A stretch of 36,886 nt of DNA from Dehalococcoidales bacterium (GTDB lineage Bacteria > Chloroflexota > Dehalococcoidia > Dehalococcoidales > JAQTVP01), in the NCBI GenBank assembly GCA_028707015.1, contig JAQTVP010000001.1, forward strand, positions 1-36,886. Reading direction: 5' to 3'. The notes below the pieces were generated by a model. That model searched no databases. It was not told the origin of the DNA and was given only the letters and a program-made list of their open reading frames with translations. Positions 2,507 to 31,235 of the stretch are shown one piece after another. A program made the position numbers and the translations under genes. Each line of letters opens with the position of its first letter. Position 1 is the first letter of the stretch.

Positions 2507-3055
2507 ATGCAATTCAATGTATCCCAGCAAATGCAATCGCCCATAGGATCAATACGGGAATATGATGTGAATGGGATTATCGATCTTGGGAAGGATAAAG
2601 TTACAGTTGCAGGTAATATTAAGCTAATTCGGACTGACCGGGGTATTCTGGCCACAGGGAAGCTAAACACTAAGGTAAATATTACCTGCAGTCGTTGTCT
2701 AGTTACATTTAGTTGTCCCTTGGTTCTAAACATTGAAGAGGAATATTTTCCTACCATAGATACGTATACCGGCGCTTCATTACCCTCACCTGAAGAAGAT
2801 GAGGAATTTGATAGTTTCATGATTGATGAGCATCATATTCTTGATTTAACCGATGCCATACGTCAATATGAACTACTGGCTATTCCGATGAAGCCGCTTT
2901 GCCGTGAGAATTGTGCCGGATTATGCTATAATTGCGGACATAATCTTAATGAGGGTTTATGCAATTGTATACCCCCGGACTCTAAACATAATTCGGGTTT
3001 GAATAAATTAGCATCTACAGATACAATAGCAAATAAGCAGAAAGGAATTAAATAA
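2507..3055 (+). CDS. yceD: YceD/DUF177 family protein (23S rRNA accumulation protein)
   Basis: Conserved position immediately upstream of rpmF. Cys-rich C-terminus CRENCAGLCYNCGHNLNEGLCNC. Start moved from the TTG at 2429 to the ATG at 2507. Confidence 0.75.
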   Translation: MQFNVSQQMQSPIGSIREYDVNGIIDLGKDKVTVAGNIKLIRTDRGILATGKLNTKVNITCSRCLVTFSCPLVLNIEEEYFPTIDTYTGASLPSPEEDEEFDSFMIDEHHILDLTDAIRQYELLAIPMKPLCRENCAGLCYNCGHNLNEGLCNCIPPDSKHNSGLNKLASTDTIANKQKGIK

Positions 3056-3058
3056 ATT

Positions 3059-3241
3059 ATGGGAGCATTACCCAAACGTAAATATGCTAAGGCGCGTCAA
3101 GGTAAAAGGCGGGGTCATCTTGGATTAAAGGCTCCTGCCCTGCAGCTTTGCCCTCAGTGTAATAGCCCAAAACTACCTCATCATGTTTGCCCCGTTTGTG
3201 GAACCTACTCTGATAGGGAAGTAATTGAAACTAAAACGTAA
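3059..3241 (+). CDS. rpmF: 50S ribosomal protein L32
   Basis: 60 aa: MGALPKRKYAKARQGKRRGH.. with CPQC...CPVCG zinc ribbon. Classic L32. Confidence 0.92.
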   Translation: MGALPKRKYAKARQGKRRGHLGLKAPALQLCPQCNSPKLPHHVCPVCGTYSDREVIETKT

Positions 3242-3343
3242 TTACTGTTATAAAAAGCGTATTTGATTTAACATTTTATAAACAGGGTAACTGCGTATTT
3301 AGATACTTACTTATCAGAGAGTTTTTTTAATGGAGCGTCAGCT

Positions 3344-4284
3344 GTGGTTAAAACGATTAAATTAGCTTATGTTTTCCCCGGACAGGCTTCCCAGAAGGCA
3401 GGTATGGGGCGTGATCTTTATGATAATTTTGATTCAGCTAGAGCGGTCTTTAAACTAGCCGATGAAACCTTAGGATTTCCTTTATCCCAATTATGCTTTG
3501 AAGGCCCAGAAGAGGTACTTCGCCAGACTATTAATACCCAGCCAGCATTACTAACAGTCAGTTTTGCCTGCTTGAAAGCCATCCAGGATATTAACGAAAG
3601 CAAAGGATTACCACCACCATCCTTCGTGGCAGGTCACAGCCTAGGAGAATATACCGCTCTGGCAGCAGCAGGAGTTCTTGATTTTGCAGATGCAGTTTAC
3701 CTTGCCCGGGAAAGAGGAAGACTTATGTACGAAGCCGGACTGGAAAAACCGGGCGGAATGGCAGCTCTTATTGGCCTTGACGAAGCATCTTTGGCCGCAA
3801 TATGTAATGAAACTGGCGCTCAAATTGCTAATATTAACTGCCCGGAACAACTGGTTATCAGCGGAGAAGAGGATAAATTAGCCAAAGCTACAGCTCTAGC
3901 TAAAGCTAGAGGAGCTAAACGTATCATGCCTTGGCGGTGAGTGGGGCATTTCATACACCACTAATGCAACCGGCAGTTGATGGCATGTCTGAGTTACTAC
4001 CTACCATAAACTTTCAAGAACCGCTTGTTCAAATTATAGCTAATACCACTGCTCAACCAATAACCACAACAGAAGAGATAAAAGCGGAACTTCTTAAGCA
4101 GTTGTGTAATAGCGTTCAATGGCAACGTTCTATCGAGTATATGATAAATGAGGGAGTATCTACCTTCATTGAGGTAGGACCAGGGAAAGTACTGAGCAAC
4201 CTTATCAGACGAATAAATAAAAATGTTAATACCATGAGCATCGGTGATTCACAAGCAGTAAATAATATAGGTACTTTTAGTTAA
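3344..4284 (+). pseudogene. fabD: malonyl CoA-ACP transacylase FabD, split by a 1-nt frameshift near 3931 (pseudogene or assembly error)
   Basis: ORFs 3344-3940 (198 aa: YVFPGQASQ, active-site GHSLGEY) and 3931-4284 (117 aa: AVSGAFHTPLM) together make one normal ~313-aa FabD. Restoring one T in cct-t(t)g gives ..GAKRIMPLAVSGAFHTPLM.. Confidence 0.85.
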
Positions 4285-25734: not shown

Positions 25735-27569
25735 GGAGGTTAATAATGGCAGGAGGCTTTATGGGAAAGATCTTATTTGTAGATCTTTCAACAGGTAAAT
25801 TGAAGGATGAGCCACTGGATGAAAAACTTTGCCGTGACTTTATTGGCGGTTACGGTATTGGTGCCAGAATTATATACAGCCGGCAAAAAGCAGGTGTTGA
25901 TCCGTTAGGCCCAGAAAACACTCTTGGTTTTATGACTGGTCCACTTACCGGTACTCCCGCCCTGATGGGCGTACGCTACGCCGCAGTGGGAAAATCACCT
26001 CTAACTGGCGGTTGGGGTGATGCCAGCTCGGGAGGAGATTTTGCCCCTCATTTAAAATTCGCTGGCTATGATGGTATCTTTTTTACCGGCATATCAGATA
26101 AGCCTGTTTATCTTTTCATTGAAAGTGGAAAAGCTGAACTGAAAGATGCCAGCCACTTATGGGGAAAGGATGCTTACTACACTGAAGATACGCTACGGGA
26201 GGAATATGGTCAGCAAGCTCACGTTTCCTGCATTGGCCCATCTGCTGAAAATCTCTCGCTCATCTCATGCATTGTTACCAAGCGAGGAGCCGCCGCCGGA
26301 CGCTCTGGTATGGGTGCAGTAATGGGCTCTAAAAAACTGAAGGCAGTAGTAGTCAGAGGTAATCTTGATGTGCCCATTGCCGATTTTGATACTGCACAAA
26401 ATATTAGGGAAAAACATGTTAAAGAATTAATGGAAATAGAGTTCAGAGGAATGAAACGCTTTGAACAAATGCGTAAATATGGCACTTCCGCCTCCTCACA
26501 CCTGTCTGCCCATAGCGGAGATACCCCTGTTAAGAACTGGGGTGGAGTTGGTACTGAGGATTTACCTGAAGTTAGCGGACTAAGTGGTGATGCTATAATC
26601 GCCAATCAGGAGAGAAATGAAACCTGCTGGCACTGTCCGGCCGCCTGCGAAGGTATCATGAAAGAAGGAACCGGAGAGTATAAATATGAGGCAGGTTCTC
26701 GCCGAGCCGAATATGAGACCATCGCTGCCTTCGGGACAATGTGCCTTAATAATAATACGGAATCAATACATATGGCCAATGATATCTGCAATCGCTACGG
26801 GCTTGATACCATTTCCGCTGGTTGTGCCATTGCCTTTGCCATTGAATGTTATGAGAATGGAATCATCACCAGGGAGGATACTGAAGGTATTGAGCTTACC
26901 TGGGGTAATCATAAATCTATTGTCGCCATGACTGAGAAAATGGCAAAAAGAGAAGGCCTTGGTGATATCCTCGCTGATGGAGTCAAGGTAGCAGCTGAGA
27001 GAATTGGTAAGGGTGCTGAGCAATATGCTGTACATATTGGAGGCCAGGAACTAGGAATGCATGACCCCAAATTACGTTCTCCGATGCGCCCTGATGCTCC
27101 ATCAGCTGCCCGCTATCAGATGGATGCCACTCCAGGACGCCATACTCAAGGCTTTGGCCCCACCAGTTTCCAGGGTCACGTGGTTAATGCCACAGGACTT
27201 TGCAGTTTTGGTTATTTCGGAGTGTCTGATCCACCTGGATACATAGCTGATTCTATAAGCGCAGTTACCGGGTGGGATTTCTCCAAAGAAGAAATGCTGA
27301 AAGCCGGTGAGAGAATCGCCACTATGAGACACGTTTTTAATCTCCGTGAAGGTATAAACCCGATTGAACTACCAGTACACCCGAGAATAACCGGTAAGAT
27401 TCCCTACAAGTCAGGCCCACTTGCCGGTGTAGTTACTGATATTGAAGCCCAGAATTACTGGAATCTTGGTGCTCTGGACTGGGATAGGGTAACAACCAAG
27501 CCCAGTAAGAAAAAATTACTGGAATTAGGGCTTGATGATGTTGCTAATGAACTCTGGCCTCCTCCGGAA
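25735..27569 (+). repeat. direct repeat copy 1 (AOR paralog, homology from SD to near the stop)
   Basis: Aligns by eye with 29389-31211 from ggaggt(t/g)aataatg to cctcctccggaa. Includes a 41-nt identical run, gtaacaaccaagcccagtaagaaaaaattactggaattagg. Confidence 0.8.
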
Positions 27570-27590
27570 CCAAAATCACCCAGTAGCTAA
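25746..27590 (+). CDS. aldehyde:ferredoxin oxidoreductase (tungstopterin AOR family), copy 1
   Basis: 614 aa. N-terminal GKILFVDLSTGK, [4Fe-4S] ligands CWHCPAAC plus GLCSF, pterin motif GLDTISAG. AAGGAGG SD. Confidence 0.9.
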   Translation: MAGGFMGKILFVDLSTGKLKDEPLDEKLCRDFIGGYGIGARIIYSRQKAGVDPLGPENTLGFMTGPLTGTPALMGVRYAAVGKSPLTGGWGDASSGGDFAPHLKFAGYDGIFFTGISDKPVYLFIESGKAELKDASHLWGKDAYYTEDTLREEYGQQAHVSCIGPSAENLSLISCIVTKRGAAAGRSGMGAVMGSKKLKAVVVRGNLDVPIADFDTAQNIREKHVKELMEIEFRGMKRFEQMRKYGTSASSHLSAHSGDTPVKNWGGVGTEDLPEVSGLSGDAIIANQERNETCWHCPAACEGIMKEGTGEYKYEAGSRRAEYETIAAFGTMCLNNNTESIHMANDICNRYGLDTISAGCAIAFAIECYENGIITREDTEGIELTWGNHKSIVAMTEKMAKREGLGDILADGVKVAAERIGKGAEQYAVHIGGQELGMHDPKLRSPMRPDAPSAARYQMDATPGRHTQGFGPTSFQGHVVNATGLCSFGYFGVSDPPGYIADSISAVTGWDFSKEEMLKAGERIATMRHVFNLREGINPIELPVHPRITGKIPYKSGPLAGVVTDIEAQNYWNLGALDWDRVTTKPSKKKLLELGLDDVANELWPPPEPKSPSS

Positions 27591-27614
27591 TATTTTGCAG
27601 TAATATAACGCACA

Positions 27615-27652
27615 AAAATGCCAGATACTTATTAATAGGTATCTGGCATTTT
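27615..27652 (+). terminator. intrinsic terminator-like hairpin after AOR copy 1
   Basis: aaaatgccagatac / 10-nt loop / gtatctggcatttt is a perfect 14-bp stem with an A-tract 5' and a T-tract 3', so it could act in both directions. Confidence 0.6.
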
Positions 27653-27765
27653 AAATTAGTGATCGCCTTATTACAGAATACATCGGAGCTTTCTTACCAG
27701 CCGGTTACAAATATTAAGGTCAGCTTTAGTGCCATATCATAGTTTCTTTTACTCAAGCTTGGTCG

Positions 27766-27774
27766 TGGTATAAT
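27766..27774 (+). promoter_or_regulatory. extended -10 element (TGgTATAAT) upstream of the 49-aa ORF
   Basis: tggtataat at 27766-27774, 36 nt before the ATG at 27810. Confidence 0.3.
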
Positions 27775-27809
27775 TCCTCTAAGTCAAGTGAAAAAGAGGA
27801 AATAAGTTA

Positions 27810-27959
27810 ATGAGAAATGAAATATGGCATTTTACTAATGATTTCAATAAATTACCAGCTAGAGATGTGTTACAAAATATCCTTAGAGATGACAGATGGA
27901 ATTATGACAAAGCAGAATTGGAACTAAGTCAAGATATCAAACTATTGGGTTTTCCGTAA
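27810..27959 (+). CDS. hypothetical 49-aa protein (below the ORF-track cutoff)
   Basis: My translation: MRNEIWHFTNDFNKLPARDVLQNILRDDRWNYDKAELELSQDIKLLGFP*. AGAGGA SD 8 nt upstream, and an extended -10 further upstream. Confidence 0.3.
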   Translation: MRNEIWHFTNDFNKLPARDVLQNILRDDRWNYDKAELELSQDIKLLGFP

Positions 27960-28019
27960 TCTTGGTTGTTACTATTTTACTTTTTGTGTTCATGACAGTT
28001 AGCACTATTTATGGACAAT

Positions 28020-28403
28020 CTAAACTCCGAGTTTCTTGTTTATTATTCCAGTAAGTACGGCTATCAATACTTGGAGAGACGCACCACCAATTTTGTTTAT
28101 TGTGTCCTTTGCAGTATTCCATGTGTGATTCTCACGAGCAAGGTCTAAAAATTCATATCCTTGCCAAGTTAAGTTAATAATTCTTGCCCTTGGGCTTTTG
28201 GTTTGGTCGCTAAAATCTGTTAAATCAACTACTGTAGCTAAACCAGCTTGCCCTAGCAGGAAAATATGATAGTTTATTTCTTCTTGGGTGTAGTTAGGAA
28301 TCTCCATTTGCATCTGTGGTGCAAAACCGTGAATGTCTGATTCGGCTTTCAGAAGTATTGCCCTTATTAAATCCATATCTCGTTTCATAATAGTACAAAG
28401 CAT
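28020..28403 (-). CDS. DUF2513-like winged-helix protein
   Basis: 127 aa. MKRDMDLIRAILLKAE... matches the characteristic N-terminus I remember for DUF2513. A strong GGGGG SD lies 8 nt before the ATG at 28403. Confidence 0.6.
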   Translation of the reverse strand: MLCTIMKRDMDLIRAILLKAESDIHGFAPQMQMEIPNYTQEEINYHIFLLGQAGLATVVDLTDFSDQTKSPRARIINLTWQGYEFLDLARENHTWNTAKDTINKIGGASLQVLIAVLTGIINKKLGV

Positions 28404-28416
28404 ATCATATTCCCCC

Positions 28417-28611
28417 TTATCGTTTCACGTTATTAAGGAATATAGTATAATGTGACTGGGATTGGGATAGTAAATATGGTGGAGCGGAAGACTTGTATAA
28501 GTAGTCCGAGCCGAGAGAGAAGAGTGAGTTTTCTTTCTGTGTTTCTTCCCAACCATATTGGACAATTAGGCACAATCTGTCACTTTTTATACTCTTTTCG
28601 CTATAAAACAT
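28417..28611 (-). CDS. possible 64-aa hypothetical protein upstream of the DUF2513-like gene
   Basis: The internal ATG of track ORF 28417-28629 is preceded by AGAGG at 6-nt spacing. The stop lies 13 nt before the next start. No recognisable family. It competes with an overlapping plus-strand ORF. Confidence 0.25.
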   Translation of the reverse strand: MFYSEKSIKSDRLCLIVQYGWEETQKENSLFSLGSDYLYKSSAPPYLLSQSQSHYTIFLNNVKR

Positions 28612-28652
28612 TATTACCTCTTTTACCAACTAAAATTGCGTAAAGGGAACTA

Positions 28653-29339
28653 TTGGATAATGCAATAGTCTTATATTTAGAATCACTACAGGCGGCCTTT
28701 CGGTTCGTAGACAAGTGGAAAGAGAATATTTCTACTCGAGCAGCGATAGCAATGTTAATATCTACTCTAAACTATGTCCTTCTTGCAAGACACGGGATAT
28801 TGCTAGGTTATTATCCAGAAGTTCAGGATTTACTTAGAAGTTGTTATGAACGAACTTACAGATGTTATCTCTTTTTTAATAATTATAAATTCGCCCGTAA
28901 ATTTCTTGAAGGTAAACAAATATCTCAATCGACTGTAGATAAAGAAGTGAGCAATATAGCAAAAGATATGAATAAAAGAGACGAACTTTTGAATAATCTT
29001 AGGAAATACTATGGGTTTTTATCTACAGTTGCACATCCCAATTTAAAGTCATTTCAAGCTCGTTATGGAATTAAAGAAATAAATGAAAGGGTAGGATTAG
29101 TATGTGTATTTGGGGGTTTGATGGGCTTGGAATTAGGGCATGTTTCGATTATCAGAATACTACAGACTACATTGAGTGCACTTAGGATTTTGGGAATCAT
29201 CATCCACGACGAAACAGGAAGCTGGGATAAAGAATTCCAAATAATCAGCAAGAAATGCGATGAAATGATTGTCAATCTTCCTATTAGGGATATAAATTTA
29301 GTTATTATGAAACAACCAAGATTAACTAGAGCCTCATAA
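28653..29339 (+). CDS. hypothetical 228-aa all-helical-looking protein (vaguely DUF5677-like)
   Basis: TTG start with AAGGGA SD. The pattern ..LLRSCYER...C.LFF.N......FLEG ... Y.FLSTVAHPN reminds me of DUF5677-type proteins. No catalytic motif recognised. Confidence 0.5.
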   Translation: MDNAIVLYLESLQAAFRFVDKWKENISTRAAIAMLISTLNYVLLARHGILLGYYPEVQDLLRSCYERTYRCYLFFNNYKFARKFLEGKQISQSTVDKEVSNIAKDMNKRDELLNNLRKYYGFLSTVAHPNLKSFQARYGIKEINERVGLVCVFGGLMGLELGHVSIIRILQTTLSALRILGIIIHDETGSWDKEFQIISKKCDEMIVNLPIRDINLVIMKQPRLTRAS

Positions 29340-29348
29340 TGATCTTCA

Positions 29349-29378
29349 TTGACAAATTAATTCTATTTAAAGTATATT
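29349..29378 (+). promoter_or_regulatory. sigma70-like promoter candidate for AOR copy 2
   Basis: TTGACA (29349-29354), 18-nt spacer, TATATT (29373-29378). Confidence 0.4.
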
Positions 29379-29388
29379 TGAAAAAAAT

Positions 29389-31211
29389 GGAGGTGAATAA
29401 TGACAGGTGGCTATATTGGAAAGACACTATTTGTGGATCTTTCCAAAGGCGAATTAAAAGATGAAGTCCTTGATGAAAAGATTAATCGCGACTTTATCGG
29501 TGGTTATGGCGTTGGTGCTAGAATACTCCATGACCGGCAAAAAGCCGGAGTTGACCCATTAGGTCCAGAGAATACCCTTGGTTTCATAAGTGGCCCTCTC
29601 AGTGGAACTCCTACTCCTTTCGGTTCCAGATATGGGGTTGTTATCGGGAAATCACCTCTAACCGGAGGATGGGGGGATGCTAATTCAGGAGGCGATTTTG
29701 GTCCGCATTTGAAATTCGCAGGTTATGACGGCATCTTTATAACCGGTGCCTCCGAAAAACCAGTTTACCTTTTTATAAATGATGGTAAAGCAGAGCTCAA
29801 AGATGCTTCTCATCTATGGGGAAAGGATACTTCTGACACAGAGGATATGCTTAAGGCTGAACTAGGAAAAGAAGTAAGAGTAGCCAGTATTGGACCCGCT
29901 GGAGAAAAATTATCACTAATCTCTGGCATTATGAATAATAAATGGAGAGCAGCCGCTCGCTCTGGTGTTGGAGCTGTCATGGGATCAAAGAAGTTGAAAG
30001 CAGTAGCCGTATTAGGGACTTCTGCAGTACCCATAGCTGATACAGAGAAACTTAGGACCTTAAGACGAGAATTTTTAGCCAAGATGACAGGTCCAATAGT
30101 TGATATGTTCAGAAAATATGGAACTGCTGGCATGACTGCCGCAAGCGCTCACAGTGGTGATTCTCCAGTGAAAAACTGGGATGGTATCGGTATTAGGGAC
30201 TATCCTAATGCCAACCTTGTGAGTGATGACCATGTTATTGATAATTTAGAAAGTGGCTATGGCTGTTACCGTTGCCCGCTTGCCTGTGGCGGACACATGA
30301 AGGCTGGTAAAGGAGAATATAAGTACCTGGATGGCACCAAGAAACCTGAATATGAAACACTGTGTACCTTTGGTGCCATGTGCCTCAATGATAATGTTGA
30401 TTCAATAATTATGGCCAATGACATATGTAATCGCTACGGGCTTGATACCATCTCTGCTGGATGTGTCATCGCTTTTGCCATTGAATGCTATGAAAATGGA
30501 ATCATTACCAAAGAGGATACCGAAGGTATTGAACTTACTTGGGGTAATCATAAATCTATCGTCGCCATGACCGAAAAAATGGCAAAGAGAGAAGGCCTTG
30601 GTGATATTCTCGCTGATGGCGTCAAAGTAGCGGCAGAGAAAATCGGCAAAGGTGCCGAGCAATACGCCATACACATTGGAGGTCAAGAATTGGGAATGCA
30701 CGACCCCAAATTTAGATCCCCAATGCGCCCTGATGCTCCCGCAGCTGCCCGATACCAGATGGATGCCACTCCAGGCCGCCATACTCAAGGTTTTGGTCCC
30801 AGCGGCTTTCAAGGCCATATTATTAACTCAGCTGGTCTTTGTATGTTCGCCGGCATCGTTGGCGGAGAAGAATACATTAAAAACATTGCGGAATTCATGA
30901 GTGCAATAACTGGCTGGGATATTACCGAAAAAGAAATACTTAAAGCAGCGGAAAGAATTGCCAATATGAGACACGTAATGACCCTGCGCGAAGGTATAAA
31001 CCCGCTGGAGTTACCAGTACACCCAAGGATTATTGGTAATCCTCCACAAGAGGAAGGTCCACTGGCTGGGGTAACAGCTGATAGTGATGCACAGAATTAC
31101 TGGAACCTTGGTGCCTTGGACTGGGATAGAGTAACAACCAAGCCCAGTAAGAAAAAATTACTGGAATTAGGACTTGATGATATCGCTAATGAACTCTGGC
31201 CTCCTCCGGAA
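29389..31211 (+). repeat. direct repeat copy 2 (AOR paralog)
   Basis: See copy 1 (25735-27569). Confidence 0.8.
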
Positions 31212-31235
31212 ACTGATAAGCCAAGCGGAAGCTAA
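29400..31235 (+). CDS. aldehyde:ferredoxin oxidoreductase (tungstopterin AOR family), copy 2
   Basis: 611 aa. GKTLFVDLSKGE, CYRCPLAC plus GLCMF cluster ligands, GLDTISAG. Confidence 0.9.
   Translation: MTGGYIGKTLFVDLSKGELKDEVLDEKINRDFIGGYGVGARILHDRQKAGVDPLGPENTLGFISGPLSGTPTPFGSRYGVVIGKSPLTGGWGDANSGGDFGPHLKFAGYDGIFITGASEKPVYLFINDGKAELKDASHLWGKDTSDTEDMLKAELGKEVRVASIGPAGEKLSLISGIMNNKWRAAARSGVGAVMGSKKLKAVAVLGTSAVPIADTEKLRTLRREFLAKMTGPIVDMFRKYGTAGMTAASAHSGDSPVKNWDGIGIRDYPNANLVSDDHVIDNLESGYGCYRCPLACGGHMKAGKGEYKYLDGTKKPEYETLCTFGAMCLNDNVDSIIMANDICNRYGLDTISAGCVIAFAIECYENGIITKEDTEGIELTWGNHKSIVAMTEKMAKREGLGDILADGVKVAAEKIGKGAEQYAIHIGGQELGMHDPKFRSPMRPDAPAAARYQMDATPGRHTQGFGPSGFQGHIINSAGLCMFAGIVGGEEYIKNIAEFMSAITGWDITEKEILKAAERIANMRHVMTLREGINPLELPVHPRIIGNPPQEEGPLAGVTADSDAQNYWNLGALDWDRVTTKPSKKKLLELGLDDIANELWPPPETDKPSGS

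Follow-up and report, generated by a model that had tools for sequence, protein, structure and literature searches.

A DUF2513 mobile insertion cassette very probably split an acquired DUF5677-like gene between two tandem AOR paralogs of a Dehalococcoidales bacterium

Mobile insertion cassettes (MICs) are non-autonomous derivatives of insertion sequences (ISs) that are moved in trans, and MIC231 of the Bacillus cereus group is an example. MICs and MITEs (miniature transposable elements with inverted repeats) are defined as classes in PMC3129680, and PMC5444012 describes a qnrS2-carrying MIC on the Aeromonas plasmid pAC3. The IS6 family has 8-bp direct repeats and GG tips, and MITE derivatives of it are known (PMC7986276). 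Here, we compared these systems with a block (27591–29399) that lies between two tandem AOR paralogs (AOR1 and AOR2) of a Dehalococcoidales bacterium (assembly GCA_028707015.1, contig JAQTVP010000001.1). The window is the whole stretch of DNA analysed (36,886 nucleotides, positions 1 to 36,886 of the contig), and positions without a locus name refer to it. An original prediction, made from the letters of the DNA, had described the block as an islet of four orphan genes. We consider it very likely that the block is a nested insertion, in which an acquired DUF5677-like gene (the host gene) was later split by a mobile insertion cassette carrying a DUF2513 gene (the element).

The four open reading frames (ORFs) of the original prediction were all present at or near their predicted positions, and they represent two genes, not four. 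A search with the 228-aa protein found 117 homologs at E ≤ 1e-3, mostly 55–78% identical and nearly all 254–270 aa long, from Chloroflexota and Dehalococcoidales assemblies. The N-terminus of these homologs (MENEIWHLTDDFNKLPARDVLKNILRDDRKNYDRAESELSEDIKLL..., ~46 residues) is absent from the 228-aa ORF, and its counterpart is found in the 49-aa ORF (MRNEIWHFTNDFNKLPARDVLQNILRDDRWNYDKAELELSQDIKLL-GFP*). In alignment A1, the 49-aa ORF matched residues 1–46 of 16 homologs, and the 228-aa ORF matched the remainder. In the 49-aa ORF, 46 host codons are continued by three codons of element sequence plus a stop, up to 27959. Removal of 27949–28656 (708 bp) led to an unbroken 273-codon ORF, which reads ...DIKLLDNAIVLY... 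over the joint and is colinear with more than 100 homologs and, at the DNA level, with the intact gene of L002. Because this deletion rejoins one colinear ORF, the 228-aa ORF 'starts' at a TTG that is in fact codon Leu46 within the duplicated target site, and the divergently transcribed gene assumed earlier does not exist as such. The label of 'only orphan genes' had to be dropped as well, given that the 228-aa protein has 117 homologs and that genomes, metagenomes and viral contigs with DUF2513 number in the hundreds.

The element interrupts the host gene at codon 46/47. A perfect 9-bp direct repeat (AACTATTGG) at 27940–27948 and 28648–28656 lies exactly on both junctions and is made up of an 8-bp duplication (AACTATTG) and a matching next base G. 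The duplication was taken as 8 bp, and the element as 27948–28647, because the copies in L005, L090 and L181 show 8 bp. The chance of an 8/8 match at fixed positions is ~3e-5. The inverted ends of the window element (21 bp) agree at 14 of 21 positions (chance ~2e-4), and the end at 28627–28647 is laid out in 12+9 nt, as are the left ends of L003, L004, L005, L090 and L181. It had been stated that no flanking repeats were visible and that the mechanism of acquisition was unclear. In fact, the DUF2513 gene lies between the two copies of a perfect direct repeat and between inverted ends of 21 bp, and for the inner element the mechanism is visible in these inverted ends and the target-site duplication. 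The left junction was identical (100%) in an independent Logan assembly (L001). An exact-sequence look-up of the 228-aa ORF returned no record and hence no second copy of the right junction.

The element belongs to a family with five complete copies, including that of the window, and their flanks are all different. The four other complete copies were found at unrelated sites in Dehalococcoidia metagenome-assembled genomes (MAGs) and one viral contig, three of them with perfect 8-bp duplications (Table 1). Every complete copy carries DUF2513, with a 3′ tail of 69–83 nt that terminates in CAACCA...ACC. The common end consensus is GGTW..GT....T..TGGTTG (also given as GGTWNNGTNNNNTNNTGGTTG), and the GG tip was found at all catalogued ends except the window's end at 28647. 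A single end was kept in L004, and L093 and L286 have a solo end each. The extra ORFs of L090 and L093 had no family matches. Although the cargo proteins were 55–93% identical among the copies compared, a single consensus is retained by the ends, which points to a long-standing association of the two. The ratio of non-synonymous to synonymous substitution rates (dN/dS) of DUF2513 was 0.07–0.18 in comparisons of the window with the L003 and L004 copies, which indicates purifying selection between copies. The family has apparently not been described before; that a small insertion element disrupts a gene is nothing unusual.

Table 1. Features of the block in the window and complete copies of the element at other loci
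Feature	Locus	Position	Strand	Basis or remark
AOR1 terminator hairpin AAAATGCCAGATAC...GTATCTGGCATTTT	Window	27616–27653	+	Read from sequence; ancestral spacer sequence has its left boundary here
Possible decayed remnant of the left end of an older element, TCTTTTACTCAAGCTTGGTCG	Window	27745–27765	+	Uncertain; inverted match to 29313–29333, 13/21, chance ~1e-3
Host gene extended −10, TGGTATAAT	Window	27766–27774	+	Sequence; predicted promoter
Host gene 5′ fragment, codons 1–46	Window	27810–27947	+	Alignment to 254–270-aa homologs; DNA alignment to L002
ORF, 49 aa	Window	27810–27959	+	ORF list
Target-site duplication, left, AACTATTG	Window	27940–27947	.	Direct repeat D18
Non-autonomous element (mobile insertion cassette), 700 bp, DUF2513 on minus strand	Window	27948–28647	−	Excision restores ORF; homologous elements elsewhere
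Terminal inverted repeat, 3′ side of DUF2513, GGTTTTCCGTAATCTTGGTTG	Window	27948–27968	+	Family GGT tip; aligns with right ends of L003, L005, L090, L181
DUF2513 gene (ORF, 127 aa), predicted PadR/MarR-like winged helix	Window	28020–28403	−	ORF list; strong Shine-Dalgarno (GGGGG) upstream
Element leader, non-coding	Window	28404–28626	−	~125 nt longer than other copies; holds 64/70-aa ORF
ORF, 70 aa (TTG start) or 64 aa (ATG)	Window	28417–28629	−	ORF list
Terminal inverted repeat, 5′ side of DUF2513, reverse complement CCCTTTACGCAATTTTAGTTG	Window	28627–28647	−	Tip CCC, not family GGT
Target-site duplication, right, AACTATTG	Window	28648–28655	.	Direct repeat D18
Host gene 3′ fragment, codon 46 onward (ORF, 228 aa, TTG start)	Window	28653–29339	+	ORF list; homologs at 55–78% identity; divergent DUF5677
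2-nt insertion in T run	Window	29297–29299	+	Relative to L002 and L085; DNA alignment A5
21-mer at host gene 3′ end, reverse complement GGCTCTAGTTAATCTTGGTTG	Window	29313–29333	−	16/21 identical to 27948–27968
AOR2 promoter-like site TTGACA-18-TATATT	Window	29349–29378	+	Promoter scan, 11/12 matches; ancestral spacer restarts here
Element copy, 580 bp	L003	5877–6456		Chloroflexota MAG; protein 87% identical to that of the window; ends 21/22; no duplication
Element copy, 557 bp	L005	949–1505		Dehalococcoidales MAG; protein 55%; ends 19/21; duplication TTGTTTAT
Element copy, 947 bp, extra 98-aa ORF	L090	68–1014		JGI metagenome; protein 63%; ends 20/21; duplication CCCGCCAG
Element copy, 530 bp	L181	2411–2940		18-kb IMG/VR viral contig; protein 60%; ends 19/21; duplication CTAGCAAT

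The block differs from its flanks in composition and is absent from the corresponding site of a relative, as is found for horizontally acquired islets. Its G+C content was 34.3%, compared with 46.8% in AOR1, 45.0% in AOR2 and 41.0% in the whole window, and it was the lowest of all 1809-bp windows (50-base steps) of the 36.9-kb sequence. The base counts quoted earlier (15/60 G+C for 28861–28920 and 35/60 for 26281–26340) were exact. The gene order PGM, PGI, AOR, AOR, ThiS-like is the same in L333 and in the window. In L333, the spacer between the AOR genes measures 227 bp and is geneless, which bears out the earlier view that the islet is foreign to the AOR tandem. Because this spacer is only 227 bp, the DUF5677-like gene was taken as an addition in the lineage of the window, between the AOR1 terminator and ~29348. 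The AOR1 terminator and the extended −10 of the host gene had both been noted before and are present in the sequence; the hairpin was not listed by a simple terminator scan. The AOR2 promoter-like site is alignable by eye with TTGACG...TATACT in the right part of the L333 spacer. The nearest AOR2 match was 80% identical, and the AOR2 search found no close relative of the source organism.

The nested insertion would have arisen in three steps. An accessory gene of ~270 codons, AT-rich and served by a promoter of its own, would have been placed in the spacer of two old tandem AOR paralogs. A 700-bp non-autonomous transposon would then have entered codon 46/47 and duplicated its 8-bp target. As a result, the host gene would have been cut into the '49-aa' and '228-aa' ORFs, and the 2-nt insertion has also shifted the frame of its tail: over the last ~12 codons, ...NLVIMKQPRLTRAS* replaces a ...ETTKIN*-type tail. 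The element would have been moved in trans by a DDE-type transposase with cuts staggered by 8 bp, and this mobilization in trans is proposed because no autonomous element with matching ends was found. We infer that the split version of the host gene is now inactive.

Several observations weigh against this sequence of events or limit it. No empty-site allele of the host gene was found; its nearest intact homolog shows 78% identity. An autonomous cognate IS sharing the ends of the element was found neither in the window nor in the 333 loci nor in an end-pattern scan of IMG/VR; the end-pattern searches (window, all loci and IMG/VR) gave only the known copy and one solo end. The L003 copy has no target duplication, which suggests a later rearrangement there. 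Inverted repeats of quite another kind flank two close DUF2513 genes (L178:2178–2710 and L180:177–920), whose proteins share 73–74% identity with that of the window. The copy in the window may be a fossil and perhaps no longer mobile, because its ends agree at no more than 14/21 positions and CCC takes the place of GGT at one tip. Moreover, the host gene in the window retains all columns that are invariant in alignment A1, so the inactivation would have taken place recently, or expression of the 3′ fragment may continue.

A promoter-like site, TTCACG-16-TATAAT, was seen at 28424–28451 (+) within the element, facing outward to the 3′ fragment of the host gene. The element-terminal GTAAAGGG sets an SD-like (Shine-Dalgarno-like) AAGGGA 5 nt ahead of the TTG codon. 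Judged from the sequence, these two signals could permit expression of a truncated protein. The inverted repeats of L178 are ~64 nt long and lie in phage-like surroundings (ClpP, DUF1353), and that of L180 is a perfect 26 nt; no obvious target duplication was found in L178 or L180.

The 64/70-aa ORF, which had been listed as a possible gene, is probably not one. It had no match in Pfam, NCBIfam or PADLOC, and three overlapping minus-strand ORFs share its stretch. It also sits in a leader segment that other copies lack: the leaders of L003, L005 and L181, counted from the left tip to the conserved MKRDMD codons, measured 90–139 nt and were without the ~125-nt segment of the window. The conserved leader motif is AGTGACAGATTGTGC. 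An RNA element was considered for the long leader and for the spacers and was rejected: there was no credible Rfam match, and the fold of the leader was no better than that of shuffles (z-score −0.83). Apart from DUF2513, no Pfam or NCBIfam family was matched inside the window element.

The features of a non-autonomous transposon with terminal inverted repeats (MIC or MITE) were found here: inverted ends, a duplication of fixed length, unrelated sites and precise interruption. The element shares with MICs and MITEs the short terminal repeats, the target duplication, the lack of a transposase, one passenger gene, scattered copies and insertion into genes. However, the searches described above found no cognate insertion sequence for this family. 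The cargo is always DUF2513, and cargo and ends have co-diverged widely (55–93%), whereas typical MICs are young deletion derivatives. The hosts also differ, being uncultured Dehalococcoidia and one putative phage.

With IS6/IS26, the element has in common the 8-bp duplication, the GG tip, short ends (21 bp vs 15–20 bp in IS6) and a size of 0.5–0.9 kb. The ends of L005 (GGTACTGTTTGC and GGTTCTGTTTGC) also hold cTGTt at the IS6 position. In contrast, cTGTt is missing in the ends of the window, L004, L090 and L181 and shifted in L003, caaa is missing, and a DDE transposase (213–254 aa, with a helix-turn-helix) is present in none of the copies. GG tips combined with 8–9-bp duplications are also found in IS1, IS256, ISL3 and IS1595, and any assignment of the element to an IS family is tentative for this reason. 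By analogy, the GG tips and the 8-bp duplication make an IS6-like transposase our best guess for the partner.

The assignment of the 127-aa protein to DUF2513 held up well. It matched PF10711 with an E value of 7.9e-25 (87.6 bits vs a cut-off of 29.6) over positions 1–99 of the 100-position model, and it also matched the phage family phrog_585 (E 1.3e-23). Its AlphaFold model (pLDDT, predicted local distance difference test, 77) consists of a winged helix-turn-helix followed by C-terminal helices. The top Foldseek matches were PadR-like and MarR-type regulators, with weak scores (E 0.04, template modelling score 0.44–0.52), and a profile search touched ArsR-type proteins. The predicted winged helix-turn-helix with C-terminal helices as in PadR-like dimers suggests a likeness to the PadR/MarR/ArsR regulators; the structural matches are weak, however. 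In the literature searched, a single paper mentions DUF2513, in passing. DUF2513 would act as a DNA-binding regulator that benefits mobile DNA.

DUF2513 was found in more than 550 stretches of GTDB species representatives, more than 500 of JGI metagenomes and 365 of IMG/VR. We checked its neighbourhoods in 160 loci from other phyla. One cluster of neighbouring proteins was found beside DUF2513 in 19 of these loci, usually immediately upstream, and in several of the 19 the stop of the neighbour overlaps the start of DUF2513. All four cluster members scanned with Pfam (4/4) were type I restriction-modification (R-M) specificity subunits (Methylase_S, hsdS). An integrase was nearby in 9 and a downstream GGDEF/Cas10-palm gene was present in 7 of the 160 loci; a DNA methylase-Mrr fusion gene lies alongside DUF2513 in some. 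In Gemmataceae, DUF2513 instead stands ahead of a GGDEF/Cas10-palm protein, and some of these loci also have a Ser/Thr kinase upstream. The loci in which such neighbours were noted include L012, L018, L021, L023, L037, L048, L054, L081, L099, L101 and L106.

In Lysobacter sp. CFH 32150 (NZ_JALDWJ010000015.1; L055:143–4842), the DUF2513 gene (3001–3357) is an integron-type gene cassette. The locus contains six identical 60-bp attC-like sites (GCCTAAC-N46-GTTAGGC) on one strand and one variant, where none is expected by chance, and the ATG of DUF2513 starts 5 nt past GTTAGGC. Similar GTTAGCC/GTTAGG-ended palindromes adjoin DUF2513 in L161 and L076. The hsdS neighbours (19/160), phrog_585 and the Lysobacter cassette agree with the earlier idea of defence cargo in that they associate DUF2513 with defence and mobile DNA elsewhere, and DUF2513 is a habitual passenger of such DNA. 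The window element resembles an integron cassette in being a single small gene that forms a mobile unit. It differs in its target duplication and inverted ends, the lack of an attC hairpin at the 3′ end and the lack of an array. An integron-cassette origin of the window element was ruled out by the target duplication and the inverted ends.

An exhaustive profile search for the host family led to just 132 representative clusters. The window fragment did not reach the gathering threshold of DUF5677 (PF18928; 17.6 bits vs 27.1), and weak matches to this family were found in 10 of 17 close homologs (best E 5e-5). DUF5677 was the sole family matched in 24 of 38 distant relatives (best E 1.5e-8). 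Because the close homologs match weakly and the distant relatives match DUF5677 alone, the host gene was placed in a divergent branch of DUF5677. The conserved C-terminal HPN region of the host family aligns to the model, but the window protein and most close homologs score under the curated cut-off. The AlphaFold model of the host homolog P0002 is all-alpha (pLDDT 80) and had no structural match in PDB or BFVD below E 0.05; a profile search of PDB sequences with the host family found nothing. The gene is widespread in Dehalococcoidia and differently placed in each genome. It has at least five different neighbourhoods elsewhere: for example, it follows comEA-comEC in L086 and L087 and CoA-transferase genes in L085, a MarR-family regulator gene and a YjbQ-family gene flank it in L170, and a zinc-ribbon ORF is its neighbour in L002. 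Its G+C content was 5–19 points under that of its flanks in four other loci measured.

The original prediction had taken the DUF2513 winged-helix protein and a divergent 228-aa helical protein as a toxin-antitoxin (TA), abortive-infection or defence pair within a four-gene orphan islet. The AT-richness of the block and its absence from the syntenic relative would fit such a pair, as would the frequent place of DUF2513 beside type I R-M specificity genes and its presence in phages. DUF5677 was reported to be enriched near serine recombinases that mark defence loci; however, the DUF5677 ORF assayed there did not belong to the set that conferred defence against phages (both PMC12632615). Hints of a HEPN-like function came from Foldseek matches to Csm6 and AbiV, which were too weak (E 0.8–1.2), and from the PADLOC model CARF_HEPN, which matched 3 of 66 full-length host-gene homologs below significance (E 0.003). 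The PADLOC scan of these 66 homologs gave scattered weak matches with one to three members each (best E 9.5e-5, a single LmuB). In the window, PADLOC, which had been suggested as a check, matched none of the four ORFs, and NCBIfam indicated no defence membership either. Above all, the 49-aa and 228-aa ORFs are one gene broken by the DUF2513 element. The adjacency of the supposed partners was made by transposition: the host gene (five other contexts) and the DUF2513 element (more than six) were never together, and their families were not side by side in any other locus examined. We regard a functional pair as highly improbable.

The host gene may itself lie in an older, decayed cassette of the same family (~27745–29333), into which the DUF2513 cassette was nested later. 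We consider this possible but doubtful. The 3′ end of the host gene (29313–29333) resembles the end of the DUF2513 element at 16/21 positions, and its inverted partner (27745–27765, 13/21) completes a putative older element whose 8-bp flanks (TCATAGTT and TCATAATG) agree at 6/8 (chance ~7e-3). In L002 (2245–2266 and 3117–3137), the 21-mer follows each of two consecutive genes: it lies at the stop codon of the host-gene homolog, and a 17/21 direct copy ends the upstream 80-aa zinc-ribbon gene. An older cassette would also account for the AT-richness and the shifting location of the host gene. However, the 21-mer codes for the conserved ETTKIE tail in L002, the 254-aa subfamily loci L086, L087 and L170 have no such ends (two of them lie tightly after comEC), and the statistics are marginal and post hoc. 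An older cassette system may have left the 21-mer behind, or its likeness to the element end may be a coincidence with coding sequence. That the host gene generally travels on an inverted-end element was rejected, as inverted-repeat scans (L002 and L085–L088) and an end-motif scan (L170) gave nothing convincing. Alternatively, DUF2513 and the inverted ends would form a self-sufficient mobile lineage, in which DUF2513 is required for spread and is no idle passenger. It would bind the inner end motif TGGTTG or subterminal repeats and recruit a host or phage nuclease or transposase, or it would shield incoming DNA from type I restriction. DUF2513 is carried by 5/5 complete copies, a transposase or another sole cargo by none, and the single end consensus despite 55–93% cargo identity, the strong purifying selection on the cargo and the presence of DUF2513 on integron cassettes, phages and R-M operons point the same way. 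However, the 127-aa protein is modelled as a winged helix with dimerization helices and has no recognizable catalytic domain, such ends are missing from most DUF2513 genes of other phyla, and the sample comprises five complete copies. As the searches were seeded with DUF2513, elements with other cargo would mostly have escaped them; the single scan for the end pattern was confined to viral contigs. A self-sufficient lineage seems quite unlikely to us. It is also unlikely that DUF2513 and the 21-bp ends form an old coherent mobile lineage of Dehalococcoidia and phages that needs the winged-helix protein for its success; if true, this would be a minimal transposon with a DNA-binding factor, not a recombinase, as its only gene. 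In such a lineage, DUF2513 might bring a transposase to the conserved TGGTTG end motif. Modulation of type I R-M is another role that it might have, and this would fit the recurrent position of the gene directly behind hsdS and its occurrence on integron cassettes and in phages.

With the nested insertion as the preferred explanation, the annotation of the block changes. Two 'orphan' ORFs become pieces of one gene, one ORF is probably spurious, and the suspected TA pair arose by a chance transposition. Programs that call genes or predict defence islands would be open to the same error. The small transposase-less cassettes form a family in uncultured Dehalococcoidia, a group with poorly catalogued mobile elements. 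The domain family DUF2513 is carried by integron cassettes and phages as well as by the inverted-end cassettes, at least three types of vehicle in all, and it also occurs in type I R-M operons; these settings are a concrete lead towards its role.

The surroundings of two other family members were also inspected. L003:4885–6811 is gene debris, with a 170-aa resolvase 480 bp upstream of the element. The stop codon of a 127-aa ORF lies within the left end of the L003 element, and a 133-aa C-terminal fragment of an MmgE/PrpD gene lies on the other side. The L003 neighbours (resolvase and 127-aa ORF) were considered as the autonomous partner and rejected, neither being a transposase with these ends. 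The solo end at L286:2356–2376 (IMGVR_UViG_3300034984_000003) lies between terminase-small-like and terminase-large-like genes, on the same viral contig as the complete L181 copy and ~4.5 kb apart from it.

Recent recombination between the AOR paralogs was rejected as the route of acquisition: they are just 69–79% identical in DNA, and the flanks have no shared sequence. The order of the tandem paralogs looks swapped between the window (25746–27590 and 29400–31235) and L333:5047–8897. AOR1 is nearest to the second AOR of L333 (79.5%), and AOR2 is nearest to the first (73.6%). The two copies in the window are 70% identical overall and ~95% identical over residues 351–450, a stretch that, by its sequence, could be a gene-conversion tract.

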